From a virus, in the IMG/VR virus record IMGVR_UViG_3300045988_158059, positions 1 through 64,000 of that record: a stretch of DNA of 64,000 nucleotides; one strand, written 5' to 3'. The position numbers were made by a program, and so were the translations under genes. The notes below the pieces were generated by a model. The model saw only the letters and a list, made by a program, of their open reading frames with translations. It searched no databases and was not told the origin of the DNA. Positions 2,582 through 64,000 of this stretch are shown here, piece by piece. Positions within the stretch are counted from its first letter, which is position 1, and each line of letters starts with the position of its first letter.

Positions 2582-3055
2582 TTACTCCATAAATGATGAA
2601 ACGTGTACAGTTACAAAATCACTATGTGCACGAATATAATCCAAAGTTTTTACTGTATCCTCTACAATTGCAATCTGAGACGGCTTAAGCCCAAGCTTTT
2701 GTTGCAGCGTCTGAAGCACAGTAAGTTTTTCTGTCTTTTCTAAAGTAAAATAGATATTATCATCCGGAAGGCCGTAATTATCTTTGATAAAAGCTCTTTT
2801 GCCGGGGATCTCACTGAAAGGACTCTTTGAACAAGCATATACTTTGTCAATACCTTTCTTTTGAATGAACTCTTGCATTAATTTAATCGGACGCACATCT
2901 TTATACGGATTCTCACTGGAAGCTACAAGTCTATCCCATTCATCATCAGTCATACTATGACTTAATTCAGAGAACTCATACGGAGCAAGTACTCCATCTA
3001 CATCCATTACTACAATCACATCATCTTTTAATAAATAATCTGTAATTTTACTCAT
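2582..3055 (-). CDS. HAD-superfamily phosphatase (Pnkp-phosphatase-like or nucleotidase-like)
   Basis: N-terminal VVMDVDGVLA carries the HAD motif I DxDG(T/V). Size (157 aa) is comparable to a stand-alone polynucleotide 3'-phosphatase domain. Confidence 0.5.
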   Translation of the reverse strand: MSKITDYLLKDDVIVVMDVDGVLAPYEFSELSHSMTDDEWDRLVASSENPYKDVRPIKLMQEFIQKKGIDKVYACSKSPFSEIPGKRAFIKDNYGLPDDNIYFTLEKTEKLTVLQTLQQKLGLKPSQIAIVEDTVKTLDYIRAHSDFVTVHVSSFME

Positions 3056-4523
3056 CTTTGTTTCCTCCGTTTAATCTTTCTCTAATGTCTTCAAATGTTT
3101 CTTTATTGCAAGCTTTCCCATCTACAAATACGGTACTTAACGCTCCGTCACGAAATACATCATTATACCCGTCTTCACACTGTAATTCTCCATTGTCATC
3201 GTAATATATACAACAACACCCTTTATGAGATTTTTTCAAATGACTCGTATCGGTTTTTGGATCTTTATAGATCATAATTGGCTCGCCATTGACAATTCCA
3301 TAGGTGGCTTTCATAGCAATACCAAACATATCTCTGGTTACAACAACCATATGTCCATCGGGTTCTATAACTGCTGAGAAGCAAAATGCTCCGACTCCGA
3401 ATACGATATTGTTTGCAGCAAATCCTTTTTTCTTCAGTTTTTCCCATACCTGCTTTACATTATTAAGAGTACATCCGTCCCCATAAATAATTCCAATGTG
3501 CGGATCAAGCACTTTATATCCCTTGCTATTTACTGTTCCGCCGAATGTATTCCAAAGCTTTTCAATTGTCTCTACAGCAATTTCTACCATATCTCCGGAA
3601 TCTGGACGAACCAGAAGTTTACCATTATGCTGCATGATTTCTTTTTTACAAGCCGGAAGAATATTATCAATCATATTCCAGTAATCATAAGTGTCAGATA
3701 CCATACTGAAAGATGCATTAGGATATAGTTCCGTAAGTAGTCTTTTTACAAATGTGATTTCATCACCGTCTACTGCATAATTTGAAGCCATAACTGAATG
3801 TTCTGTTGATACAGCACCAATTCCGATTCTTTTAGTCCAACAGCAAGCATCATAATACGTATCTATATAATCAATGGCCGGAATTGTACTTGTCTTATCA
3901 AATGATAATAACCAAGCAGATGAACATCTTACTGCCTCTTCCATACAAGACATTCCTCTCATACCAAAGTCTGAGCAGGCCATTTCAGGTCTTAAAAAGT
4001 CATCACAGGTCATTTTATAGTAGTCGTTTGCAAGTTCTCTATACATATGACCAATTGTTGCATGAGCACATGGTTTCCAGAGTTCAACCTGCAGGATACA
4101 TTCTATCCACTGTACTACCCAAGCAAAATCTGGATGTGTGTTTGTAATTTCGATGCATGGGATGCCCATTGGTACTAATGTTCCCTCCGGAATAGCACGT
4201 ATCTGAATTGGAAGATAACCTAATTTATGAAGTTTCATAATAGGCTCTAGGTCATAACTATTTCCTAACTGTATATCAATACTGTATTTATATGTATGCT
4301 CAACTTCTACTGCTGTTAATTCAAAAAAGTTTTTATTAAAATAATCAATCAGATATTCTTCAATAAATGCCTGTAGACCAAAGAATACCATTTTGTTCTG
4401 ATTCTTAAGCATTGATCGTCGTGGAGTCCAGTAGGAAACAAGTTTTGTTAATCCTTTTGGATAGATTTTATTATGAATTTGTTTATATGTATCTGAAAGT
4501 AAAATTGCTAAAGTATTATTCAT
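3048..4523 (-). CDS. nadV: nicotinamide phosphoribosyltransferase family (NadV/NAMPT-like or Namat-like)
   Basis: N-terminal LLSDTYKQIHNKIYPKGLTKLVSYWTPR parallels the NAMPT block [29 protein letters not shown]. 491 aa, typical for the family. Confidence 0.8.
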   Translation of the reverse strand: MNNTLAILLSDTYKQIHNKIYPKGLTKLVSYWTPRRSMLKNQNKMVFFGLQAFIEEYLIDYFNKNFFELTAVEVEHTYKYSIDIQLGNSYDLEPIMKLHKLGYLPIQIRAIPEGTLVPMGIPCIEITNTHPDFAWVVQWIECILQVELWKPCAHATIGHMYRELANDYYKMTCDDFLRPEMACSDFGMRGMSCMEEAVRCSSAWLLSFDKTSTIPAIDYIDTYYDACCWTKRIGIGAVSTEHSVMASNYAVDGDEITFVKRLLTELYPNASFSMVSDTYDYWNMIDNILPACKKEIMQHNGKLLVRPDSGDMVEIAVETIEKLWNTFGGTVNSKGYKVLDPHIGIIYGDGCTLNNVKQVWEKLKKKGFAANNIVFGVGAFCFSAVIEPDGHMVVVTRDMFGIAMKATYGIVNGEPIMIYKDPKTDTSHLKKSHKGCCCIYYDDNGELQCEDGYNDVFRDGALSTVFVDGKACNKETFEDIRERLNGGNKDE

Positions 4524-21598: not shown

Positions 21599-24500
21599 CT
21601 ATTTAATTACTTCATATTCATCAAGTATATTTTCAAGTTCATCTGTTTCCTGCCATGTTCCATTCACACATTTTTTCTTCTTTTTCTTTGTAAAGTGTGG
21701 AACTTTCAAAATAGAAAATTCACCAAATGGATTATCCTGATATACTTTTATACTGGTTACTCTTGCTTTTACATCCTCTCCGGTTTTAATATTATGTAAT
21801 ACACAATATGGTTTTCTGACTTCCTTGAAAGTTTTATAATCTGTCACGACGTAAAAACATTGATTTACTTTTGGATTTACATATACAACATACTGAAGAT
21901 ATTCCTTTTCGAATTTTACCTGATCAATGACAGACATTGCTTTATTTTCTAAACGACTAGATAACTCAGCTATAAGCCCTGTATTATCCAAATCCCTATA
22001 TTGAGAAGCAGTCTCTTTCCCGGCATATTTCTTCATCAGATACTCTGTCAAGCCAAGACTTTCCATCTTTTTTTTACTGATAATCTTACATAAAGCAAAT
22101 TTGTCGTAGATCTCGGATACTTGCATCAAATACTGATTTTTTCCAAACTCCTCGAAATAATTTAATCCAATAAGAATCGTTAACTGTCTGGAATTCACAG
22201 ATGTTTTTGTATTTACATCTGCCAGAACTTCTGTAAAATTGTTATATCGATTCGTTGCTAATTCAAGAAGATCATCTGCTATTTGAGCATTACAGAATTT
22301 AATTGATGCAATACCCTTATATAATGCATGATTCGCTTTATCTACGGTATATTCAGCTCCGGATTTTCTGAATTTGATATTCTTAATCTCAATATTCTTT
22401 ATCTTCGCCAATTCAGTCCCCATCAGAATATCGTCTGTATTGTTTGCACAGTTTAGATATGCAGCGATAAATTCTTCTGGATAATAATACCGGCAGAATG
22501 CACACATATAACCAATCATAGAATATCCTGTTGAATGGTTATACCCAAATTGATAATTTGCACTATCCTCAATAATCTGTAAGAACGCCCTTGCTTCCTT
22601 CTCTGCTATTTCTCTTGGCTGAGAAGACATTTTACAATACCCATTCAAAATATCAGGCAAAGCTTTCTGCAGTCGATCCATCTGTTTACGTCCGATTGCT
22701 CGTCGAACGTTATCAGCAGCAGACCCACTTAACCCGCATATATTTTGAAGAAACTTAATGGTGTCCTCCTGAAAAATAAGAAATCCTCTATTATCTTTCA
22801 GCAATTCATCAATAAGTGGTGATGGATTTTTATTTGTCTCACCTGCTAGCAGCCTATCTCGATATGAAGCCCCGGATGGTCTTAGTGACGCATTTATCAT
22901 TGATAAATCGTTGATACATTGTGGGCCATAATTCTTAAGCATTTCGTATGCATATGGCGATTCGAACTGAAATACGCCAGCAGGACAAAGAACAATATCA
23001 TTCCATACCTTCTTATCATTCCAGTTAATCTGATGTGATTTTGGATATGGAAGTCCGGCATATTCATAGCACTTTCGAATAATTTCCAGATTCTTTAGGC
23101 CAAGTAAATCGTATTTAACAAGACCGGCTCCATCATGAATTTCTTCCATATTGATGCACATAATACGTTTTCCGTCATTCCAGAACGTTCCATAATTATC
23201 TGGAAGTGTTACTGGAGAAACTACAATACCGGCTGGATGAATTGACTGAGAAACCGGAGTGCCATTAATTCCATCAAAATAATAGAACAATTTCCTGTAC
23301 TGATTATCTTTCAGATCATTCATTTGCTTTATAGCCTTGTCACGCTCAGTTATTTTATTTTCATAATCACGACGTAGGCCATAATATTCTGATTCTTTAT
23401 CTGCCTGTTTAATTTCATCGAAATGAATCATATCTTCGATTTCTTTAATTCTTTTTCCGGTTGATTCAATTGTATCTTTATAGGCACTATACATTTCCTT
23501 AATATGTGCAACCTCATCAAGCGGGATATCTAAAGCTCGCCCGATCTCATCAATAGTGCCTTTATCAGATACGGTTCCGATAGCAAGAATATACGCTGTC
23601 TTATCATATCCAAATGACTCAATGATGTGATTGTAAACTAATTCTCGCTGATCTGGTGAAATATCAAGATCGATATCTCCAACCTCTTCACGATCTTCAT
23701 TTGCAAATCGTGAGAAAATTGTATTCCATATAACTGGATCAACATCAATGATATCTGTTATGTATGCAACAGTAGAACCACCTACAGATCCTCTACATGG
23801 CCCAACTGGTATACCATTTTCCCAACACCAACATACCAGTTCGGACATAAAGAGCATAAATCCAATCATATTAATCTTTTTAAATACACGCATTTCCTCT
23901 TTGATACGCTTCACGTATTCTGGAATTTTTTCCTTTTTGATAATTCCTGCATCAATTTTCTCATGCAATTTATCAAAAATTCTTTTCTTTAATACTTCCT
24001 CTTCATTATCGTATAATTTTGGATATTTTACAGAAGTATCAAGTTTGAAATCAGTAACAGAATCGGCCATCACATTTGTATTTTCTATTGCTTGCAGAAT
24101 CACATCAAATGGAATATCGCAATTCTGAACACGAAACATTTCAACCAACTCTTCGTAAGTCTTTAATGTCAGATCAAATTTATCTTCATCAGCATATTCG
24201 ATACGTTTTGCTTTCTGTAAAATGCTTCTGCATTCAGCTTTATAATAATCAATGCTATGTGTATCTGTTCCGGCGATCAAAGGTTTCCCTGTCTGTTTTG
24301 ATGCAGCATATAAAAATTCGTTATATCGTTTCTGCTCTGGAAAATCGTGCGGCTGGATCTCATAATAGTCATATGTCTCCAACAGCTTATGAAAAATTTC
24401 CCTCGCTGTAACATTCATAAGCTGAACTTCTTCAAGCTGATTGTTATAATACTGTTTCAGTTCATCAATTTGAGCTTCGATATAATGCGGATACAAATCT

Positions 24501-25078
24501 TCAGGGATGCATCCATTTTCATCAAACTGTTTGAACCATTTTATCATGGCTTTTTGATCATTCTTCTGTTTTTCAAGTTCAGCTACTTTATTTGCCAGTT
24601 CCTGCTTTAATGCTGCAGACTTTTCTGCCATTTGTTTCTGGATATCCTTTGGGTATTTATTCAAAGGTGATGCCAAACAAGCAGAAATCTTGATTACATT
24701 ATCTGAAATATTAAAGAACTCTTCAAATGTAATACGTGGTTTATAATATCTATGATCCGGTTGTGTAGATTTATCAATCAAAAGATTGATTTCTTTTACA
24801 CCTTCATAGTTCTTAGCCAAAAGAATTGTATGATAATTGTCCCTTACCTTCTCTTCTAGTGAAGCTGTTAAATAACACTCAACTCCGTGTATGTATTTTA
24901 ATCCTTTTGAATTGATATACATCTTTTTTTCAACCCAATTATAGGCATTCCCATGCTCCGTCAGAGCTAAGGCTTTATACCCTAGCTCCGCTACACGGTC
25001 TGCATATTCTTTATAACCAGTACAACTATCAAGAAGAGAACGGTTTGTATGGCAATGGTAAATAGTATATCGTTCCAT
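21599..25078 (-). CDS. dnaE: DNA polymerase III alpha subunit-like replicase (DnaE family, PHP domain)
   Basis: N-terminal PHP block YHCHTNRSLLDS...LALTEHGN, then the palm/fingers block GYSMIGYMCAFCRYYYPEEFIAAYLN (DnaE AFGYNKSHAAAYAL...YPAEF). 1159 aa. Confidence 0.8.
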   Translation of the reverse strand: MERYTIYHCHTNRSLLDSCTGYKEYADRVAELGYKALALTEHGNAYNWVEKKMYINSKGLKYIHGVECYLTASLEEKVRDNYHTILLAKNYEGVKEINLLIDKSTQPDHRYYKPRITFEEFFNISDNVIKISACLASPLNKYPKDIQKQMAEKSAALKQELANKVAELEKQKNDQKAMIKWFKQFDENGCIPEDLYPHYIEAQIDELKQYYNNQLEEVQLMNVTAREIFHKLLETYDYYEIQPHDFPEQKRYNEFLYAASKQTGKPLIAGTDTHSIDYYKAECRSILQKAKRIEYADEDKFDLTLKTYEELVEMFRVQNCDIPFDVILQAIENTNVMADSVTDFKLDTSVKYPKLYDNEEEVLKKRIFDKLHEKIDAGIIKKEKIPEYVKRIKEEMRVFKKINMIGFMLFMSELVCWCWENGIPVGPCRGSVGGSTVAYITDIIDVDPVIWNTIFSRFANEDREEVGDIDLDISPDQRELVYNHIIESFGYDKTAYILAIGTVSDKGTIDEIGRALDIPLDEVAHIKEMYSAYKDTIESTGKRIKEIEDMIHFDEIKQADKESEYYGLRRDYENKITERDKAIKQMNDLKDNQYRKLFYYFDGINGTPVSQSIHPAGIVVSPVTLPDNYGTFWNDGKRIMCINMEEIHDGAGLVKYDLLGLKNLEIIRKCYEYAGLPYPKSHQINWNDKKVWNDIVLCPAGVFQFESPYAYEMLKNYGPQCINDLSMINASLRPSGASYRDRLLAGETNKNPSPLIDELLKDNRGFLIFQEDTIKFLQNICGLSGSAADNVRRAIGRKQMDRLQKALPDILNGYCKMSSQPREIAEKEARAFLQIIEDSANYQFGYNHSTGYSMIGYMCAFCRYYYPEEFIAAYLNCANNTDDILMGTELAKIKNIEIKNIKFRKSGAEYTVDKANHALYKGIASIKFCNAQIADDLLELATNRYNNFTEVLADVNTKTSVNSRQLTILIGLNYFEEFGKNQYLMQVSEIYDKFALCKIISKKKMESLGLTEYLMKKYAGKETASQYRDLDNTGLIAELSSRLENKAMSVIDQVKFEKEYLQYVVYVNPKVNQCFYVVTDYKTFKEVRKPYCVLHNIKTGEDVKARVTSIKVYQDNPFGEFSILKVPHFTKKKKKKCVNGTWQETDELENILDEYEVIK

Positions 25079-33501: not shown

Positions 33502-33578
33502 GTTTACTGCCTCCTTAAATATACATTTCAGTAGTTACTATTTTCTTCTGTAATGATCCGCGCGACATCATTACAAAT

Positions 33579-33648
33579 ATGACACAATTGGATTCGAACC
33601 AATATTTCAGCTTAAAAAGCCACGTTCTTTCCGTTAGACTATATGTCA
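33579..33648 (-). tRNA. tRNA-Lys(UUU) candidate (weak stems)
   Basis: Reverse complement reads TGACATATAGTCTAACGGAAAGAACGTGGCTTTTTAAGCTGAAATATTGGTTCGAATCCAATTGTGTCA. Acceptor TGACATA/TGTGTCA, perfect T-arm ATTGG-TTCGAAT-CCAAT, anticodon loop TTTTTAA. The D stem and anticodon stem are poor. Confidence 0.45.
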
Positions 33649-33717
33649 TCTTTTTTTTACATGCATGACCTGTCGTACTGCAGTCACAACAGGATTATGT
33701 GTACTTATTCTTTCTCC

Positions 33718-34044
33718 TTATCCATTATAATTTTCTCCATAGATTGCGATTTCTGGTTTGCCATTTTCATCTAATACGTAATATGGTGTAATGCCACCAA
33801 TGCCACCATAACGGTCTGAACCTTGTACTACATATACAATTTTAGTGGTTTTATAATATACAAAATATTGACTATATCGACTAAACCCATTACTTGATAC
33901 GATTTGTATTTCCTTAATTTCAATAAATTGACCGAATGATTGAACTTTTTCTCCATTGTCATTTATCTCTTTGTCACCACATCCAGTAAACGAAAATGCC
34001 AATCCCGATACAAGCAATCCAATTAATAGTTTCTTAATTTTCAT
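33718..34044 (-). CDS. putative lipoprotein
   Basis: Signal peptide with FTGCGDK lipobox. Confidence 0.5.
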   Translation of the reverse strand: MKIKKLLIGLLVSGLAFSFTGCGDKEINDNGEKVQSFGQFIEIKEIQIVSSNGFSRYSQYFVYYKTTKIVYVVQGSDRYGGIGGITPYYVLDENGKPEIAIYGENYNG

Positions 34045-34084
34045 TCTGTCACCTCTCGAATCTCACATTCCATCGAATCACTTA

Positions 34085-34282
34085 TTATCCTATTAAAAAC
34101 ATCCCAGTAATAAATAATGAGAGTAATATAAACATAAGAATAAAATCACCGATAGCCAAAACAAGTCTCTTTCTATCATCAAGAATATCGAGTCTTGAAA
34201 AAGACATACCAATTGTAAAAATTAATGATAATAGTATTCCTATCAATAATGATCCTATATAAGATTTCATATCTAACCTCAC
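34085..34282 (-). CDS. small two-TM membrane protein
   Basis: 65 aa, two hydrophobic helices. Confidence 0.4.
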   Translation of the reverse strand: MRLDMKSYIGSLLIGILLSLIFTIGMSFSRLDILDDRKRLVLAIGDFILMFILLSLFITGMFLIG

Positions 34283-35058
34283 ATTTCAACAATTCTGTAT
34301 AATTGTCTATTCAGGTAATGTCCAAGTAAATAATCATTATCAAGTCCAGTTCCGTGATAAAATTCTTCCGCAATTCCACCACCTATAGCACATAACGTAT
34401 CCATGTCACACTTTAACGAAAATACATTTCGCAAGAAACTTTCATAATCATCACTTTCCAGAAAACATCTTATTGCAACAGGTACACTTCCTTGACAAAT
34501 TTCATTCCACTGATATGTCTTTCTATAGTCTTCAATTTTATATTCAACACTATATTTGTAATCATCTTTTGGATAGTATTTCTTCACATATTCATAGATT
34601 TCTGCTTTTGTAACACCTGTTCTTGCCATATAAATACACATTGCCGTTGCAACCGCCCCTTTAATTCCTTCTGGATGATTATGTGTACACTCAGCAGACT
34701 TTGTAGCCCATTCGATAACTTCTTTTTCTGTATTAAAATGTTCTCCAATATAAGAACATCTCATTGCAGATCCATTACCGCAACTTCCATATGCAGTTTC
34801 ATCATCGTATCTTAACCACGTTTCAAAATTATTTCCATATCCTGCATTTGGATATTTTCTTCCCCATTCTCTATATGAATCTGAGAAAGATTTATTATTA
34901 ATAATTGCTAATTTAGCAGCAAGTGTCATTACAGTATCATCTGTAAAATAACATCTATCAGTAAATAACTTACAATTCTTCCAATCTAAATCAATTGGTC
35001 TACCAAATTCATATTGTGAACCTGCAATATCACCTAAGATTGCACCAACGATAGCCAT
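34279..35058 (-). CDS. ADP-ribosylglycohydrolase (ARH/DraG family)
   Basis: GAILGDIAGSQYEF, FTDDTVMT, GNGSAMR and THNHPEG match the ARH motifs (GDALG, TDDT, GNG(A/S)(L/A)MR, THxHP). Confidence 0.8.
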   Translation of the reverse strand: MAIVGAILGDIAGSQYEFGRPIDLDWKNCKLFTDRCYFTDDTVMTLAAKLAIINNKSFSDSYREWGRKYPNAGYGNNFETWLRYDDETAYGSCGNGSAMRCSYIGEHFNTEKEVIEWATKSAECTHNHPEGIKGAVATAMCIYMARTGVTKAEIYEYVKKYYPKDDYKYSVEYKIEDYRKTYQWNEICQGSVPVAIRCFLESDDYESFLRNVFSLKCDMDTLCAIGGGIAEEFYHGTGLDNDYLLGHYLNRQLYRIVEM

Positions 35059-35152
35059 AATTTAATCTCCTTTATTTTAAATTATTATTTTTACGGGATT
35101 ATTTATAAGAATTTTATATCTCTCCTTTCATTTTTCTTTTAATGGAAACTCT

Positions 35153-35226
35153 GGGACTCGAACCCAGGACCGACCGGTTATGAGCCGGTTGCTCTAACCA
35201 ACTGAGCTAAGTTTCCATGTAGTGGG
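35153..35226 (-). tRNA. tRNA-Met(CAU) (elongator Met, or Ile2 if lysidine-modified)
   Basis: Reverse complement GGAAACTTAGCTCAGTTGGTTAGAGCAACCGGCTCATAACCGGTCGGTCCTGGGTTCGAGTCCCAGAGTTTCCA. All four arms canonical; anticodon CAT. Confidence 0.85.
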
Positions 35227-35358
35227 CGTTATAATTACACCCACAATATAGAAATGTAACAATATCTGTAAAAAAACTTGCTTATGCAATCGTGTCAGTT
35301 ACACGAACAATCGTCATCACTCTCAAAAGCCCTCCCACATTATTTCTACCTCACTGAC

Positions 35359-35616
35359 TCAATTACTTTTTTGCTTCATAACTAATCTACACATCTGCTT
35401 AACCAGATCATCCTCCAACTTCCCACTTACAACCTCATTAGCACAAAGCACATCTATATAAATGTTTCCTTTCGACGTATCCAAACCATACAACCAATAC
35501 ATCTGCAGCTTCCTCATCACTGGGTTCCAGTATTCCACCAACTTTTCAATCTTCTTTAATGTCCTATAGACGCTATATAATATAAAGGTCAACCTCCCGG
35601 ACTTATTTCTCCTCAT
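35359..35616 (-). CDS. hypothetical protein
   Basis: 85 aa ORF between two tRNAs. Confidence 0.3.
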   Translation of the reverse strand: MRRNKSGRLTFILYSVYRTLKKIEKLVEYWNPVMRKLQMYWLYGLDTSKGNIYIDVLCANEVVSGKLEDDLVKQMCRLVMKQKSN

Positions 35617-35658
35617 TACTATTTAGGCCATCAAGTAAATCCGTAAGAATAGTCCGAA

Positions 35659-35738
35659 TACGGATAGTGGGATTCGAACCCACACGATTTCTCCGAAGGG
35701 TTTGAGCCTTCTACGTCTGCCAGTTCCGTCATATCCGC
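35659..35738 (-). tRNA. tRNA-Leu(CAA), type II (long variable arm)
   Basis: Reverse complement GCGGATATGACGGAACTGGCAGACGTAGAAGGCTCAAACCCTTCGGAGAAATCGTGTGGGTTCGAATCCCACTATCCGTA. 3-bp D stem, anticodon stem GAAGG/CCTTC with loop CTCAAAC, ~13 nt variable arm, T-arm GTGGG-TTCGAAT-CCCAC. Confidence 0.75.
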
Positions 35739-35905
35739 TTATTGTATAAGGTTACTACCGGCTTACCCTTATACAGTTTATTTATACTCGTAAGACCTGC
35801 TTCAAACGAGTTATAAGAGGTAAAAAGTAAAATGAAAGCCACATGCTTATAACCGAACTTCCACATATCTAAAGTTTTTATTCATCGGAATGTTTAATTA
35901 AATTT

Positions 35906-37024
35906 TTATACAGAAAGATTATAATGAAGTCCCTTTTCTTCTTTTCTTGCAAAAACGATACGATCAATTTTAATATTTTCGTATTTTTTCTTTTCTTCTT
36001 TTGTAAGATCCGCATAGTCTTCATCCGGAATAATTTCAACATCTTTTCCATCAACAAAATCAATGTGTCTGTCAAAATCATATCTTACATCAACACCAGA
36101 AAATTTTGTATAGAACCATTTTCCATCTATTGTAAAATATAAACTATGATTAGAAGTCTTATCAAACAAGTCAAGAGTTTTTTCTTCTGTATCTTTTTTA
36201 CCATCTTTAGTATACAAAGTAGCTATATAAACAGTATTATTTATATGAAGGATATTCATATCTTTAATTGCCTCTTGAAATTGTAATCCTGTATTAAGCT
36301 CAAATGCGATAGCTCTTAAACAATCATAATTTAAGCTGACTCTTTTAGAAAATGCAATTACCTTACTAATTTCTCCATAATACTCTTTATGTAACTTGTC
36401 TCTCATATATTCTGTGATTTCAGAATCTGTCGGATAATCAAATCTAAAATGATAATGAAATCTTCCAGGTCTATTTACCAAATAATCACTCAGAGTATTA
36501 AGATTATTACAAGTAATAACATATAACTTTTTCCCTTGAGCTAATCCATCAAATAATGTAAGCAGCTCTGTTTGTGGATTAGCCATACCATCAGCAGCTT
36601 TAATATTACCAAATGTTTTATCAAACTCATCAAACATTACTAATACTTCCTGTTCAATTTCTTCAATAAAATTAGCAATTCCAGGGATATATGTATCAAC
36701 AATAATTACTGGTAATCCTTTTTTTACAGCTTCTACAGCAAGAATCTTAGAAAATAAAGATTTGCCAATTCCTTTGGCTCCAGATAAGATCACGCCAAGA
36801 TTTTTATTGAAATTTGGAAAAGCATTTAATACTTTATTTACTTTTTCCATGTGCACACCGTATATTTTATCTTCATTGATCTCAATATCAGCATGTTTCT
36901 CTAAATAAAATCCTGTCATCTGTGAACATCTGATAGAATAAATTTGTGCCGGAAGTTGATTATGTGTTACAAGATCATCTCCGTAGATTCTAAAAGTGGA
37001 ACCTGTACTAATAATTTTACTCAT
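35906..37024 (-). CDS. AAA+ ATPase
   Basis: ILSGAKGIGKS Walker A, VLVMFDEFDK Walker B, VNRPGRF sensor 2 / Arg finger. Confidence 0.65.
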   Translation of the reverse strand: MSKIISTGSTFRIYGDDLVTHNQLPAQIYSIRCSQMTGFYLEKHADIEINEDKIYGVHMEKVNKVLNAFPNFNKNLGVILSGAKGIGKSLFSKILAVEAVKKGLPVIIVDTYIPGIANFIEEIEQEVLVMFDEFDKTFGNIKAADGMANPQTELLTLFDGLAQGKKLYVITCNNLNTLSDYLVNRPGRFHYHFRFDYPTDSEITEYMRDKLHKEYYGEISKVIAFSKRVSLNYDCLRAIAFELNTGLQFQEAIKDMNILHINNTVYIATLYTKDGKKDTEEKTLDLFDKTSNHSLYFTIDGKWFYTKFSGVDVRYDFDRHIDFVDGKDVEIIPDEDYADLTKEEKKKYENIKIDRIVFARKEEKGLHYNLSV

Positions 37025-37103
37025 TTTTATCTCCTTTTTGTATAATTAAATTATATTTCTCTGCAATTCGGCTGGAGTATATTTGTATAAAATACTTGCC
37101 AAA

Positions 37104-37188
37104 CGGCGGTAGTGGGATTCGAACCCACACGAGCTACTGCTCAATAGAGTCAAAGTCTATTATGTCTAGCCAATTTCATCATACCGCT
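37104..37188 (-). tRNA. atypical tRNA with long variable arm and apparent UUG anticodon
   Basis: Reverse complement AGCGGTATGATGAAATTGGCTAGACATAATAGACTTTGACTCTATTGAGCAGTAGCTCGTGTGGGTTCGAATCCCACTACCGCCG. A1:C72 mismatch, 3-bp D stem, anticodon stem ATAGA/TCTAT with loop CTTTGAC, ~15 nt variable stem-loop GAGC-AGTA-GCTC, perfect T-arm. Confidence 0.55.
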
Positions 37189-37285
37189 ACATTCATTGTT
37201 TGTATAATTAAATTTCTTTCTTCTTTTTATTTAGCACAGGGAGCTTTCACTCCTCTGTGCTGTTGTCATCCTTGACTATGTATTT

Positions 37286-47408: not shown

Positions 47409-49409
47409 TTAATTTAATTTGTTTTTGTATTCTTCTTCACTGATAATAGGAATGTTCAACTCAGAAGCTTTCTTATTTTTACTAGATCCACTGTTTTTAT
47501 CATTGGTAATTAGATAATCAGTTGCCTTTGTAACTCCGGACACAACTTTCCCTCCTTTTGATTCTATATCCGCCACAAGTTCATCCCGGTTAGCAAAAAT
47601 ATGTAACTTCCCAGTGATACAGAATTTCTTTCCGGACAATGAATCGCTTTCAGAAGATATTTTATCATTATTAAGTTTCGAAAATATGAACTGTTCTGCC
47701 AAAGCAATAACGTAATCATAATTTTCCTTAAAATATCTATGGATAGAAATATTTCGCTCCGTCCCTAATCCTTCAATACAGGTAAAATTAAAATCAGAAG
47801 CAGCATCTTTAATAAATGTTTCAAATGGATAGAGCATTCCTAATTCCCTGGTTCTTATTTCTTCATATCTAGCAATATCCTTTGCAGCTCTACCACCAAT
47901 TAACGGAATATTTAATCCTACAATAAATTTTTCTATGGTAGTATTCCTGCTAAACTCAATAGAATCTAAAATATTCGCAATTTTCTTTGCTCCCATTCTA
48001 GGTAATCTGGACAATTCTGTAGAATGATCCTTCAAATAATACAGATCAATTGGTGATGTCACAAGCCCAGTATCAATCAATAGCTGCAATGTAGCCTCAG
48101 ATAATCCATTAATATCATGGGCCTTTTTTCCTACAAAAGCATTTAATTCACCCAGAAGCTTGCCTTTGCATCCAGCATTCATGCACATCAATACTTCAGA
48201 ATCGTTCTCTTTTACGACAGACACTGGTTCTCCACAGATTGGACATATTTTAGGAATTATAAACTTTTCACCGGTATTATAACCTCTTGTTATGTTTTGA
48301 GAAATCTGCGGAATGATCTGGTTTGCCTTATACACAGATACGGTATCATCTTTATGAAGATAAAATCCTTTGAATATACTCACATTGTGTAGGCTCGCTC
48401 TACTTACAGATGTTCCGTCAATATCAACCGGTTCAAAGACTGCTGTAGGCGTTAATTGTCCAGATTTACCCATAGTCCATTCAATATCAGTCAAAACTGT
48501 CTCAAATTCATCATCATAGAACTTGTATGCCAGAGAATGACGTGGATACTTATCTGTGACTCCAAGTGATAATCCATAAGCGATATCATTATATGCAGCA
48601 ACAAGCCCATCAATTGGATAAGATAAGTATGCTGCCTTTTCCTTTAACAGATTAATAAGCTCTTCAAGATTCTGATTTTCTTTATATACACGAATATAGG
48701 GTACAATATCAAATCCAAGTTCTCTTGCTTTTTCAAATCTTGCTGACATTAAAGGTAGCTCGTCCATACCGGCAGGTACCTTCCATACTATAAAACGAAC
48801 ATGACGTTTGGCTGCTACCTTACTATCTAGCTGTCTGACTGATCCTGAAGCAAGATTTCGCGGGTTCTTATATCTATCTTCTTCATGTTTAATTAAATTA
48901 TTAATTTTCTCAAAATCTGTATATGTAATAATAGCTTCTCCTTCGATTTCAACGTGGCCTTTCTGATTAATATGCATAGGAATATTTTCGAACGCCTTTG
49001 CATTGTGAGTAATAATTTCTCCTGTAACGCCGTTTCCGCGAGTTTCAGCCTGGATCAGCTCGCAATCTTCATACGTCAAAAGAATTGTCAATCCATCCAT
49101 CTTACACATTAGCAAAGCATCTTTATCACCAATAAATTTTCGAAGTATATTCACATCTTTAGTTTTATCAAGAGACATCATTAAATGTGAATGCTCAGTT
49201 TTCTCTAATTTACTTTTTACTTCATATCCGACGCTATGGACTGGAGAATTACTTAAAATAACTCCTGTTTCTTTTTCCATTTTTTCCAACTGATCACACA
49301 GATCATCATACTGATGATCCGTAACAATACTCTCTGCATTATTATAATAAGCATCTCGGTACTGATTAAGTTTTTCAACCAATGCTTTCATTTCTTCAAT
49401 CTTGTTCAT
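47409..49409 (-). CDS. ligA: NAD+-dependent DNA ligase
   Basis: KMDGLTI is the KxDG adenylation motif. Also a CPICGEP...C..AGCKG Zn finger, an HhH region and a C-terminal BRCT-like KKFCITGKL. Confidence 0.85.
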   Translation of the reverse strand: MNKIEEMKALVEKLNQYRDAYYNNAESIVTDHQYDDLCDQLEKMEKETGVILSNSPVHSVGYEVKSKLEKTEHSHLMMSLDKTKDVNILRKFIGDKDALLMCKMDGLTILLTYEDCELIQAETRGNGVTGEIITHNAKAFENIPMHINQKGHVEIEGEAIITYTDFEKINNLIKHEEDRYKNPRNLASGSVRQLDSKVAAKRHVRFIVWKVPAGMDELPLMSARFEKARELGFDIVPYIRVYKENQNLEELINLLKEKAAYLSYPIDGLVAAYNDIAYGLSLGVTDKYPRHSLAYKFYDDEFETVLTDIEWTMGKSGQLTPTAVFEPVDIDGTSVSRASLHNVSIFKGFYLHKDDTVSVYKANQIIPQISQNITRGYNTGEKFIIPKICPICGEPVSVVKENDSEVLMCMNAGCKGKLLGELNAFVGKKAHDINGLSEATLQLLIDTGLVTSPIDLYYLKDHSTELSRLPRMGAKKIANILDSIEFSRNTTIEKFIVGLNIPLIGGRAAKDIARYEEIRTRELGMLYPFETFIKDAASDFNFTCIEGLGTERNISIHRYFKENYDYVIALAEQFIFSKLNNDKISSESDSLSGKKFCITGKLHIFANRDELVADIESKGGKVVSGVTKATDYLITNDKNSGSSKNKKASELNIPIISEEEYKNKLN

Positions 49410-60528: not shown

Positions 60529-61728
60529 TTATGCAGATTTTTTAGGATACAGCTCTTTCATCCTCTTGCTGAAATCAAAATCATTTACTTCAATAACGCG
60601 TTTCATGTAAGCAAATAATCTGTAGTATACACCCCTATAGCAATCTACTGCACTTTCTACATCTACAAGAGAATCCTTCAAAGACATCATATTGCCTTTA
60701 ACACCAGGAACTCTGCATCCATGAAACTTAATTAAATTCATAAGTGTATAATAAGAACCTTCTCCCTTGAATGCGTCTTTCCATTCTTTACATTTAGGAG
60801 TTTCATTAGGCAGTCTATACATATTGGTACAGAACTTTCTTAATACTCTATATAAATCTTTATATGAAAATGTCATTGAGTGGTGGTTTCTGATGTTAAT
60901 AACTACTCGTTTTACATCTGCAAAGTTGCTTTTCTGTGGATAATATACATATTTGTTAAGATCTTCAACAAATATATTTCTACCAAAAACCTTCTTATAA
61001 GGAACACCTTTACATTTATGCATCGGAAGTTTATTAACATAAATCTCAAGTTTATTTATATAATCCTCGCAAGTAGCAGAAACAACATCCGGAATAAAGA
61101 ATCTTGATCTTTCAGCAAAAGCTTTCGGATCTCTATCCTGTAATTCGGCTAATACTCGGATTTCTTCTAACATCATTTCAAACTGATACTGATATCCATA
61201 ATGATCATTTAAATATGCGTCATATCCAGATTTACCTGTATAATAACTCTTGTAATTCAGCATTCTGAACATCTGTGCCATAACCCATCTTCGATGTAGA
61301 CGAGTATTTCTTACATATCCATCTTCATAAATCTGAGATAAGAAAGACTCCTCTTCTGAATTCCTTTTCTTCTCTGGACTTACAATGACAGGACTTCCGT
61401 CTTCGCTGATTGTTACATTAATTGTGCTGCCAGGTTTTAAACCTTCCGGTAATGTTACGCTGAAATATTTTCCTGTTTCAATGTTTGCTGCCTTTAATGC
61501 TTCCATTCTGTTCTCTCTTGATTTTTTCATAGTTTTATTCTCCTTTGTATTTGTTTTATTTTCTGTGATTTCTCTCCAACCAAGTACATCAAAATATGAA
61601 TAATTACGCCATTCATAAGTGTCATTTTTACCTTTGATCATCATATCTTTTCTTGTAGTTCCGTCTTTTAAAAGAATTTCTACTTCCTTATATAATTCAG
61701 GGATACTTTCACCATAAATCCAATTCAT
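60529..61728 (-). CDS. hypothetical protein (399 aa)
   Basis: Long ORF with no motif. Confidence 0.45.
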   Translation of the reverse strand: MNWIYGESIPELYKEVEILLKDGTTRKDMMIKGKNDTYEWRNYSYFDVLGWREITENKTNTKENKTMKKSRENRMEALKAANIETGKYFSVTLPEGLKPGSTINVTISEDGSPVIVSPEKKRNSEEESFLSQIYEDGYVRNTRLHRRWVMAQMFRMLNYKSYYTGKSGYDAYLNDHYGYQYQFEMMLEEIRVLAELQDRDPKAFAERSRFFIPDVVSATCEDYINKLEIYVNKLPMHKCKGVPYKKVFGRNIFVEDLNKYVYYPQKSNFADVKRVVINIRNHHSMTFSYKDLYRVLRKFCTNMYRLPNETPKCKEWKDAFKGEGSYYTLMNLIKFHGCRVPGVKGNMMSLKDSLVDVESAVDCYRGVYYRLFAYMKRVIEVNDFDFSKRMKELYPKKSA

Positions 61729-61749: not shown

Positions 61750-62049
61750 TTAATTTTCAAATTCTATTTGCTGTAATTCTTCCATCGTAGAAGCGGATCC
61801 GACAATAGTACAATAAATTACATTAGATACTTTTGTATTTAATTCTTTTGTAAGAGACTTAAAAAGTTCACTTAACTCTTCTGCTCCGGCTCTGGTACCA
61901 ATATGATTTTCAATATCCAGTTGAACTTCATCTTCTCTTCCGTCCAATGTCAAGAATCCTACATTAATAACTGAACAAAAAGATAATGTATCTACTTCCG
62001 ACACAAGCTTCCCCTGTTTAATTAACTGTTTTATTGTCAATGTGATCAC
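61750..62049 (-). CDS. hypothetical protein
   Basis: 99 aa ORF. Confidence 0.35.
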   Translation of the reverse strand: MITLTIKQLIKQGKLVSEVDTLSFCSVINVGFLTLDGREDEVQLDIENHIGTRAGAEELSELFKSLTKELNTKVSNVIYCTIVGSASTMEELQQIEFEN

Positions 62050-62056
62050 CTCGTTA

Positions 62057-62449
62057 TTATAATTCTAACCCAATCATCTCTTTTGCAATTTCTTTAACCG
62101 CTTTTCTCGCCGTCCAATCAGTATACTCTGCAGCACAGGCCACGCAGTGGTCATACATGAACTCCACCAAGTCACCCACATCCTTGATTTTAGCCTTGAT
62201 TTCGGCAATCTTTTTTTCTTCTTCTTTTTTTAATTCTTTTTGAAGTTCTTCACGCGAAGCATACAAATCTTTCAGCAGGCAGCCGCTGTTTCCACCATCG
62301 TCCCACTCAATATCTGCATATGGATATTTTTTCGGGTATCGTACAGAAACTTCTGTTTCGCCAAGTGCCGTAATTTTTGCACTGTGGATACACTGTCCCC
62401 AAGGTTCCAAGAACCAGACTTTCTGACCAATTTTTGGATTATTAATCAT
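62057..62449 (-). CDS. hypothetical protein
   Basis: 130 aa ORF. Confidence 0.4.
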   Translation of the reverse strand: MINNPKIGQKVWFLEPWGQCIHSAKITALGETEVSVRYPKKYPYADIEWDDGGNSGCLLKDLYASREELQKELKKEEEKKIAEIKAKIKDVGDLVEFMYDHCVACAAEYTDWTARKAVKEIAKEMIGLEL

Positions 62450-62462
62450 TATTTATCACCTC

Positions 62463-62954
62463 CTAACATTCAATCCACTTCTTCAGTATAATTAAATCTT
62501 TATCTTTTCCCTGATAAAACCAATGGCTGCCCATCTGCTCTTCATCCCAAGTCAAATATCCTGCCAGAGAAGCACAAAGAATGAATGCTTCAAGCGCAGC
62601 TCTTGCATAATTTCGATCTTCGCCAGTAACCAACTGTCCGTCTGTCATTTCATCTGGCTTTAATGCACGAAAATATTCTCTTTGTCTGTACTTCTCACTT
62701 CTTTCACTTGGAATTGAATATTTATATTTGTGATACAGATTTTCAATAATCTCAAAACATATTTCATTGCATTCCTTTCTTGACGTATCAAAGTTAATTC
62801 CGTCAATAACAATTAAATCGTGACGGATATCATACATAGAAGATTCTATATATTTTTTACCTTCACAAATTAATGTTTTATTCTTTAAATCCGCTTTCCA
62901 TCTTTTGGTTTCGCTAATTTTAAGATCAGATAAAAAATCTCCGTAAATACTCAT
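62463..62954 (-). CDS. hypothetical protein
   Basis: 163 aa ORF. Confidence 0.4.
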   Translation of the reverse strand: MSIYGDFLSDLKISETKRWKADLKNKTLICEGKKYIESSMYDIRHDLIVIDGINFDTSRKECNEICFEIIENLYHKYKYSIPSERSEKYRQREYFRALKPDEMTDGQLVTGEDRNYARAALEAFILCASLAGYLTWDEEQMGSHWFYQGKDKDLIILKKWIEC

Positions 62955-62980
62955 TTTATCTACTTCCTTTCATTTTATTG

Positions 62981-63620
62981 TATATTAACTCTGTATTTCT
63001 GAGACATTCCTTTAATAGTTTCATATATGAAGGTTATCCGGAGGATATCTAGCTCCGTTAGGGGCTTGATTTCCTCCGGATAACCTTCTTATTAAATTTT
63101 AAATACCTTGTTAATATTCACTGCCTTGTGGTTTTATATCAATTCAACATTTCTGAGGTATCACTATAATCATTTCATATCTCCAGAGCAAGCCGTGAGG
63201 CAATTTATTGCCTCAGGTGGTTGTTTCTGAAATTAAATTAAATGTCTTATTGATACTCGTTACCTTACGATTTTTTTTATATTAACTCAACATTTTTAAG
63301 ACATTTCTATAATTGTTTCATATAATGCAGGTTACTGGAGATGTAATCTTCAGGAAGTGCTGGGGATACCCAGAGGTTCCTGAAGAAGACATCTATCTTA
63401 GCCTGCATTATTAAATCTTAAATATCTTATTTGCATTCCGTTATACTCCGGACTGAATATACTCAATTAATCTGGCACATTTCTTTAACAGAGTCATATT
63501 GAGCTGCGATTCTCCTGGTGGAGGATCTTAAAGCCGGTTCGGTAGACCGGATTTCAGATCCGTAACCAGGAATAATGGCAGCACCATTAAATCGTATTAA
63601 CCTTGTATATTCCGAGTGTG
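62981..63620. ncRNA. structured non-coding region with four repeated hairpin modules (candidate small-RNA cluster or cis-regulatory/origin-like region)
   Basis: Module A is a perfect 17-bp stem, 63029-63045/63072-63088. Module B has a 9-bp stem, 63196-63215, within an outer ctgagg/cctcag pair. Module C is a nested stem, 63327-63407. Module D is a multi-branched stem, 63514-63570. Each module is preceded by an aacatttct-like box. No ORF of 60 aa or more. Confidence 0.4.
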
Positions 63621-63640
63621 CTCTCGTTTAATTAAATTAC

Positions 63641-63901
63641 TTATTCAATTACTTTCCAACTTCGTAGAAGTGACTCTAATGAATCTGAAATAGAATCATA
63701 ATCAGTGCCATAAATATTAGCATTAGTGTTACCATCTAATTCCATTTCATAGCTTTTTTTAGGAGGCTCCAAAGTCACACCCTTTTTATCTAAAAAATCT
63801 TCAAAGATATCAATAATACCTCCAATAAGTTCTGTTTTGTCATTCTGGCCAGTCATGTTTTTTGTATCTCGTATTACGAGTTCTGTTTCAATTGGCATCA
63901 C
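63641..63901 (-). CDS. hypothetical small acidic protein
   Basis: 86 aa ORF preceded by the conserved intergenic motif. Confidence 0.35.
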   Translation of the reverse strand: MMPIETELVIRDTKNMTGQNDKTELIGGIIDIFEDFLDKKGVTLEPPKKSYEMELDGNTNANIYGTDYDSISDSLESLLRSWKVIE

Positions 63902-64000
63902 AGCATCGTCTGATAATGTTGCAAATTTGCATGTATTAAGATTGTATGCATTATTATCCTCACCAGAAGTATCTAACTTTAAATAAATATCTCCTGAATA

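Follow-up and report, generated by a model that had tools for sequence, protein, structure and literature searches.

Reverse transcriptases (RTs) of the UG27 group belong to class 2 of the UG/Abi enzymes and are mainly found in human-gut phages of Bacteroidetes and Firmicutes, where they are accompanied by two associated gene clusters of unknown function and by a putative structured non-coding RNA (ncRNA) encoded in the intergenic region next to them (Mestre et al. 2022, PMC9226505). A preprint of 24 September 2026 (bioRxiv 10.64898/2026.09.22.753630) gave the first description of the system formed by such an RNA array and its RT. There, the RNA units are reported to be ~150 nt long (149 and 167 nt; ~135 nt without the pseudoknot) and to have a basal hairpin and a pseudoknot; their variable central stem is flanked by the motifs AUCNNNNNNNUANAG and UUYA, which lie in an asymmetric internal loop. 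An RT-dependent single-stranded DNA of 50-100 nt, made from the central hairpin, starts at AUC and ends after UUYA, and its synthesis needs the RT and both accessory proteins. Arrays of close relatives differ by one or two units (loss or gain), and no complementarity of the products to phage or host genomes was seen. Here, we describe a gene-free, hairpin-rich region in a viral genome, which is very probably the ncRNA array of a phage-borne UG27 RT system. The array is not a new kind of system but belongs to this known, very recently described kind.

Results

A gene-free region with four stable hairpins

We analyzed 64,000 nt of DNA (positions 1 to 64,000 of IMG/VR record IMGVR_UViG_3300045988_158059), referred to as the window. 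Its minus strand holds all open reading frames (ORFs) of at least 150 aa but one (53 listed), and the GC skew is negative throughout; the 64 kb appear to be transcribed in one direction. The window contains strong AGGAGG ribosome-binding sites and encodes a DnaE-type DNA polymerase III α subunit (21599-25078), whose closest relatives in the phage collection come from large Clostridioides and Bacillus phages (35-45% identity). Both observations fit a Bacillota host. A nicotinamide/nicotinate phosphoribosyltransferase-family protein (3048-4523) and an NAD-dependent DNA ligase (47409-49409) are encoded as well, and four tRNA genes (Lys-UUU, Met-CAU, Leu-CAA and Gln-UUG) are found among small genes on the minus strand at 33578-37189.

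The region under study (62955-63640) is located between two minus-strand genes, one at 62463-62954 and one ending at 63641. The original prediction considered it to be a long non-coding tail lacking any ORF of at least 60 aa. This description was borne out: the internal ORFs comprise only 40, 33 and 33 aa, and with 686 nt, the region exceeds all other stretches of the window that lack a minus-strand ORF of at least 60 aa, the next one being 381 nt long. Several hairpins proposed for the region could be located, namely a perfect 17-bp stem formed by GAAGGTTATCCGGAGGA (63029-63045) and TCCTCCGGATAACCTTC (63072-63088), a ctgagg/cctcag hairpin (63196-63215) and, where bulged or nested stems had been suggested, also a long hairpin (63322-63411). 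At 63513-63571, the structure built from ggatct and ccgg elements is indeed a hairpin, but rather than being multi-branched, it folds as one long bulged hairpin. RNA structure prediction, recommended at the time as a check, found the four central hairpins to be far more stable than shuffled sequence. The z-scores range from -4.4 to -9.1 in RNA folding and from -4.3 to -9.5 in DNA folding, with 0 of 200 shuffles being as good in either case.

Each hairpin module was also said to be preceded by an aacatttct box. We found the four copies of this box (at 62998, 63152, 63295 and 63471), and a degenerate box pattern yielded three copies versus 0.03 expected by chance. The box precedes the module on the plus strand only, however; on the RNA-making minus strand it comes after the hairpin. 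An Rfam 15 scan of the region (E up to 10) returned no family match near its gathering score, the best matches reaching no more than 26 bits versus gathering scores of 36-195 and belonging to eukaryotic snoRNA and miRNA models. A blastn search against 50,697 phage records gave no match, and a sigma-70 promoter and terminator scan of the region revealed no enrichment over shuffles. Outside the array, the window matched the central hairpins only by chance, over 11-12 nt, in agreement with the preprint (bioRxiv 10.64898/2026.09.22.753630).

Four units share one fold

All six paralogous units yielded one common fold. Read on the minus strand, its 5' end is formed by a small hairpin with a 6-nt loop (P0), followed by the 7-bp helix P1, a 3x3 internal loop (AAG opposite UGA or AGA) and the 6-bp helix P2. 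The 5' strand of P2 is followed by a few bases, by AUU(U/C)AAU and by a unit-specific central hairpin of ~50-90 nt. On the 3' side of this hairpin we find AUAUGAAAC-NN-UUA(A/U)AG, that is AUG-N7-UANAG, and then an 11-nt stretch, positions 4-8 of which pair with the P0 loop to form a pseudoknot. At its 3' end, the unit is closed by the second strands of P2 and P1. The central hairpin is thereby surrounded by an asymmetric internal loop, with ~12-15 nt on its 5' side and ~28-30 nt on its 3' side.

A covariance model (R1) was built from 31 natural units of ten arrays (set A1). With filters off, R1 matched the 64-kb window exactly four times (E 1e-13 to 1.5e-20), in each case on the minus strand, and gave nothing further at E<0.3. 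The features of the array are as follows:

62981..63627, minus strand: array of four units, very probably UG27-type ncRNAs, in the same direction as the genes (covariance model R1)

63454..63627, minus strand: unit 1, 174 nt, fold z-score -6.5
63614-63625, minus strand: unit 1, 5' hairpin, with loop GCACA at 63617-63621
63605-63611 with 63456-63462, minus strand: unit 1, P1
63596-63601 with 63466-63471, minus strand: unit 1, P2
63588-63591, minus strand: unit 1, UUUA
63495-63591, minus strand: unit 1, central hairpin and predicted template, 97 nt
63495-63497, minus strand: unit 1, AUG
63483-63487, minus strand: unit 1, UAAAG
63475-63479, minus strand: unit 1, pseudoknot 3' strand UGUGC

63278..63452, minus strand: unit 2 (chimera), 175 nt
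63429-63435 with 63280-63286, minus strand: unit 2, P1 with two non-pairs (pseudoknot with one non-pair)
63412-63415, minus strand: unit 2, UUUA
63319-63415, minus strand: unit 2, predicted template, 97 nt
63319-63321, minus strand: unit 2, AUG
63307-63311, minus strand: unit 2, UAUAG

63135..63271, minus strand: unit 3 (shortest), 137 nt, fold z-score -4.4
63258-63269, minus strand: unit 3, 5' hairpin, with loop AGGUA
63249-63255 with 63137-63143, minus strand: unit 3, P1
63240-63245 with 63147-63152, minus strand: unit 3, P2
63234-63237, minus strand: unit 3, UUUA
63176-63237, minus strand: unit 3, predicted template, 62 nt
63176-63178, minus strand: unit 3, AUG
63164-63168, minus strand: unit 3, UAUAG
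63156-63160, minus strand: unit 3, pseudoknot strand UACCU

62981..63132, minus strand: unit 4 (contains the perfect 17-bp stem), 152 nt, fold z-score -9.1
63119-63130, minus strand: unit 4, 5' hairpin, with loop AGGCA
63110-63116 with 62983-62989, minus strand: unit 4, P1
63101-63106 with 62993-62998, minus strand: unit 4, P2
63093-63096, minus strand: unit 4, UUUA
63022-63096, minus strand: unit 4, predicted template, 75 nt
63022-63024, minus strand: unit 4, AUG
63010-63014, minus strand: unit 4, UAAAG
63002-63006, minus strand: unit 4, pseudoknot strand UGUCU, with one G·U

Covariation and coding strand of the RNA

We assessed the common fold by covariation. For A1 (31 units from 10 arrays), we scored P0, P1, P2 and the pseudoknot together with a candidate UUYA:UGAA helix: 96.3% of the cells are paired and 20 of the 25 pairs change on both sides, values reached by 0 of 500 shuffles. 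When the 3' partners were slid by 1-3 columns as a control, pairing was 30-51%. Set A3 contains 20 units from bacterial genomes and other assemblies, none of which had been used for the model; here pairing reaches 96.4% of the cells, with covariation in all 21 pairs. The pseudoknot is beyond what R1 can encode, and it is formed in 100% of A1 with four of five pairs covarying, and in 97% of A3 with five of five covarying. The hairpin modules are conserved in relatives, with covariation, as the original prediction required. The unit 1 ortholog in distant phages retains the GCCGG..CGGUAG..CCGG apex.

The sequence motifs around the central hairpin are similarly well preserved. UANAG is present in 49 of 49 units with the N7 spacing likewise kept, and UU(C/U)A in 48 of 49 (UUCA in 27 and UUUA in 21, the latter including all four units of the window). 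The triplet of the 3' motif AUCNNNNNNNUANAG is AUG in 45 of the 49 units, among them all four of the window, and the published AUC-N7-UANAG occurs only in two Bacteroidota units (L132) found by R1. We read the AUG triplet as a clade variant of the published AUC. Two further helices were considered. The candidate UUYA:UGAA helix was retained as a possible one, as its C-G to U·G changes are one-sided. We discarded a pairing of the -10-like TTTAAT with the ATTAAA tail, since the ATTGAAT of distant relatives is not matched by a compensating change.

The scaffold helices contain 55 G·U cells when read on the minus strand and 3 A·C cells, which would correspond to G·U on the plus strand (35 versus 3 if the candidate UUYA:UGAA helix is omitted). 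This 55 to 3 distribution of wobble pairs assigns the array RNA to the minus (gene) strand. Minimum-energy folds of whole units proved uninformative or misleading for choosing the strand, with 108 versus 107 G·U pairs and a summed energy slightly better on the plus strand; it is the scaffold helices alone that give a clear answer. The central hairpins harbor wobble-type mismatches in both senses, a hint that they may be selected to fold both as RNA and as complementary DNA. A requirement for the central hairpin to fold as cDNA, too, may thus explain why whole-unit folds have no minus-strand preference. The box, originally interpreted as a processing or transcription signal ahead of each RNA, is actually the reverse complement of the 3' part of the unit, where the AUG-N7-UANAG motif, the pseudoknot strand and the 3' sides of P2 and P1 are found.

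Putative accessory genes and reverse transcriptase

We inspected the genes next to the array, for which the following features are relevant:

62463..62954, minus strand: 163-aa gene, putative sORF (small UG27 accessory), directly downstream of the array
60529..61728, minus strand: 399-aa gene, putative bORF (large UG27 accessory), by homology and synteny
62057-62449 and 61750-62049: two small inserted ORFs between sORF and bORF in the window

Synteny and homology to genes flanking UG27 RTs suggest that the 163-aa gene represents sORF and the 399-aa gene bORF. The 163-aa gene has no Pfam or PHROG match, and its homologues (33-55% identical) always adjoin an array and an RT. No Pfam match was obtained for the 399-aa gene. 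In BLASTP, it matches the gene that follows the sORF homologue in L087 (51% identity, 2e-132), L124 (47%), L128 (41%) and L127 (31%, 2e-36), and tblastn located a homologue in L129-L132, too. Both genes are represented by homologues near the RT in each of the related loci.

RT genes are present in 17 fetched loci from the window's own phage group and its relatives. The RTs of three relatives match the PADLOC RT_UG27 model over their full length (E 2e-209, 9e-213 and 3e-112). UG27 scores of the RTs amount to 374-705 bits, compared with 47-54 bits (1e-11 to 1e-13) for retron models, for which the NCBIfam cut-off is 235, and models for group II introns and DRTs likewise fall far short of the UG27 scores, staying below their NCBIfam cut-offs. 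In contigs 98-100% identical to the end of the window, the RT is located ~3.8 kb beyond it. Two of these, L074 and L098, are 99.9% and 100% identical, respectively, to window positions 63303-64000, with the RT 3.8 kb past the window end on the same strand. Judging from these near-identical contigs, this phage probably carries a UG27 RT gene outside the window. The ~3.8-4.2 kb between RT and array in the window's clade (L001:91-2981, L074 and L098) are filled by small genes, which include a P22_AR_N antirepressor-like gene.

The usual order in distant loci is RT, array, small gene and large gene, sometimes followed by more units. In L128, the RT is found 1 kb upstream of the array, and in L127, which has the most distant relative of the 163-aa gene, a 431-aa RT is followed without gaps by a 145-aa homologue of the 163-aa gene and by a 368-aa gene. 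The RT of L127 is thereby directly next to the small accessory gene, with every unit found in this locus being downstream of the large gene (L127:4554-5375). Extra units downstream of the large accessory gene are also seen in other distant relatives (L124:4771-4927, L128:4714-5007, L129:7773-7931 and L131:7460-7809). The window has no units downstream of the 399-aa gene, where there are only 108 nt. The layout in the window's clade is more dispersed than in L129, L131 and L132, with extra genes inserted between the parts.

Gain, loss and recombination of units

Among IMG/VR contigs of up to 250 kb, 36 close relatives of the 163-aa gene were identified. In the window and in those relatives in which both flanks are present, the intergenic region measures 537, ~686, ~880 or ~1019 nt, equivalent to 3, 4, 5 or 6 modules. 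Distant phages and prophages, in which the homologue of the 163-aa gene is 33-55% identical, contain arrays of 2-7 modules in the same place. Among the hosts are Ruminococcus sp. AM36-2AA, a Lachnospiraceae MAG, a Faecalimonas MAG and a Sangeribacter MAG, the latter belonging to the Bacteroidota. Degenerate box matches in viral contigs were kept only if accompanied by a complementary P1 and a neighboring sORF homologue; most single matches of this kind are due to chance.

In the window and in L034, two of six ancestral units have been deleted by recombination between two boxes, which were fused at a 21-nt stretch identical in both. Unit 2 of the window is a chimera, whose 5' half and central hairpin derive from unit 2 of the six-unit relatives and whose 3' half derives from unit 4 of these relatives. 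With its weakened P1 and pseudoknot, the chimeric unit may be non-functional. The perfect 17-bp stem of unit 4 is specific to this strain: all 32 compared relatives (L001-L036 range) have an imperfect stem with GAAGGUGAUGAACU(A/G)GGAGGA opposite UCCUCCGGAUAACCUUC. The 5' arm of the relatives (GAAGGUGAUGAACURGGAGGA) gives rise to an asymmetric internal loop, and that of the window matches the 3' arm by exact complementarity, as if a quasi-palindrome correction had re-templated one arm on the other. The array evolves by unit gain, loss and recombination.

The apical loops of the central hairpins contain UA(U/C/A)C in 38 of 51 predicted cases and form a UAUC tetraloop in 15 (as on the minus strand at window position 63365-63368), counts that overstate independence, because many of the units are orthologues. 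This apex is absent from the main text of the preprint (bioRxiv 10.64898/2026.09.22.753630).

Alternative interpretations of the region

As an alternative, the original prediction named protein-binding iterons of a replication origin or packaging site. With the repeats in this role, the hairpins would act as DNA cruciforms. An AT-rich, non-coding sequence with repeated boxes and large inverted repeats, representing the longest gene-free stretch of the window and folding about equally well on both strands when whole units are considered, would be compatible with such a function. However, the flanks vary and yet stay complementary (TATTAAC/GTTAATA, TATCAAT/ATTGATA, TGCAAAT/GTTTGCA, AATATAC/GTATATT), which argues for a helix rather than for one sequence-specific binding site. 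The repeats maintain RNA-type pairing, including a covarying pseudoknot that would be meaningless in duplex DNA, and their wobble pairs are one-sided (55 to 3). In addition, the array travels with an RT and two accessory genes across very different phages and prophages. We thus consider an origin or packaging site to be extremely improbable. The ends of a MITE or transposon are out as well, as the terminal repeats covary between copies. TTTTATATTAAC presumably resembles clostridial CRISPR repeats; this likeness was dropped, since only two of six unit types carry TTTTATATTAAC and P1 varies freely.

If read on the plus strand, the region could be taken for four independent small RNA genes, each with the box as a TATAAT-type promoter and the hairpin as a terminator. 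The CTATAAT or CTTTAAT found in the box ~7 nt before the hairpin corresponds, however, to the conserved RNA motif AUUAWAG read in reverse complement, and helices P1 and P2 and the pseudoknot straddle the putative start site. As they covary across this site, they must lie within a single transcript, and the G·U asymmetry favors the minus strand for it. One sigma-70-like site was called (63298-63326) and AT-rich, T-containing tails do follow the hairpins, but promoter-like sites number 6 as compared with a shuffled mean of 7.9, and there is no conserved -35 element, whose position would fall into P1/P2 and is variable between units. Plus-strand genes are therefore very unlikely. From the tandem small RNAs originally envisaged, the tandem array of structured ncRNAs has stood, while the plus strand and the notion of free-standing small RNAs have not. 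A retron-like element, in which each unit would be an msr-msd RNA giving rise to branched multicopy DNA, could account for P1 as closing inverted repeats, for a long variable hairpin copied into DNA and for an RT nearby, and the UG27 RT contains a retron-type conserved domain (cd01646) according to bioRxiv 10.64898/2026.09.22.753630. The RT matches UG27 at ~1e-210, though, in contrast to 1e-11 to 1e-13 for the retron models (47-54 bits versus a cut-off of 235). There are several units per RT instead of one, the RT is not adjacent to the array, two accessory proteins of unknown fold are required, and the conserved motifs are unlike those of retrons. We accordingly consider a retron-like element to be very unlikely.

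Discussion

We return to the UG27 system as the explanation that we strongly favor. Transcription of the array on the minus strand, either jointly with the neighboring genes or in parallel to them, would yield four structured units in series. The RT and the small and large accessory proteins would then initiate DNA synthesis at AU(G/C) within the 3' motif, and the RT would copy the central hairpin and stop after UUYA, releasing one short single-stranded DNA hairpin per unit. The predicted products of ~97, 97, 62 and 75 nt would have the plus-strand sequence of positions 63495-63591, 63319-63415, 63176-63237 and 63022-63096, respectively, and the same boundaries predict templates of 54-127 nt across all units. 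By homology to the UG27 systems that have been tested, the units probably serve as RT templates rather than as free-standing small RNAs, with the three proteins probably acting together to make a short DNA hairpin from each central hairpin.

UG27 systems occur commonly in phages of the human gut and produce a set of short DNA hairpins. One tentative and, in our view, rather unlikely idea is that the cDNA hairpins represent folded DNA ligands with a common, protein-recognized apex (for example, decoys for host or phage factors) and not guides acting by complementarity. It is based on scaffold helices that are RNA-only, with one-sided G·U pairs, and on central hairpins that fold at least as well in the cDNA sense. 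The apical UA(U/C/A)C, present in about three quarters of the predicted loops, reads G(A/G/U)UA in the cDNA. If such ligands existed, the chimeric unit and the palindrome-corrected hairpin would be informative alleles.

The locus provides a clean example from a Bacillota phage and supports the published architecture, including the pseudoknot, by independent covariation. It adds a clade-specific start triplet, AUG, and a dispersed layout with the RT ~4 kb from the array. Its natural alleles (the two-unit deletion, the chimera and the perfected palindrome) could reveal which RNA elements are needed for cDNA synthesis, with the chimeric unit 2 being a natural test of the need for P1 and the pseudoknot. 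For annotation, hairpin tails of this type should be read on the gene strand, and a nearby RT should be looked for.

We compared the array to the described systems. As in UG27 arrays, tandem and sequence-diverse units adopt one fold, with lengths of 174, 175, 137 and 152 nt here versus ~135-167 nt published. The units have the basal hairpin, the pseudoknot and the asymmetric loop around a variable central hairpin, with UUYA and N7-UANAG. The predicted templates (54-127 nt) compare with the reported cDNAs of 50-100 nt. The arrays again occur in phages of gut Bacillota and Bacteroidota, differ in unit number among close relatives, and are accompanied by an RT and by small and large proteins without known domains. 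Different from the published systems are the start triplet, which is AUG and not AUC in this Bacillota clade while all other structural features fit, and the position of the RT ~3.8-4.2 kb from the array, with two small ORFs separating sORF and bORF. One recombinant, chimeric unit and one central hairpin turned into a perfect palindrome are further peculiarities of this locus. In retrons, too, a structured ncRNA is closed by terminal inverted repeats, and an RT turns its hairpin-forming portion into short single-stranded DNA. The UG27 array differs from retrons by an RT from another clade (UG27, class 2 UG/Abi), by several templates, by other motifs and by two dedicated accessory proteins; a branch linkage is a feature of retrons. 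DRT2 (UG2) and DRT9 (UG28) likewise combine a class 2 UG/Abi RT with a neighboring structured ncRNA as template (PMC9226505; bioRxiv 10.64898/2026.09.22.753630). They use one ncRNA per RT to make long concatemeric or homopolymeric cDNA in bacterial defense, whereas UG27 systems are phage-borne, are not enriched in defense islands and generate short hairpin cDNAs from many templates.
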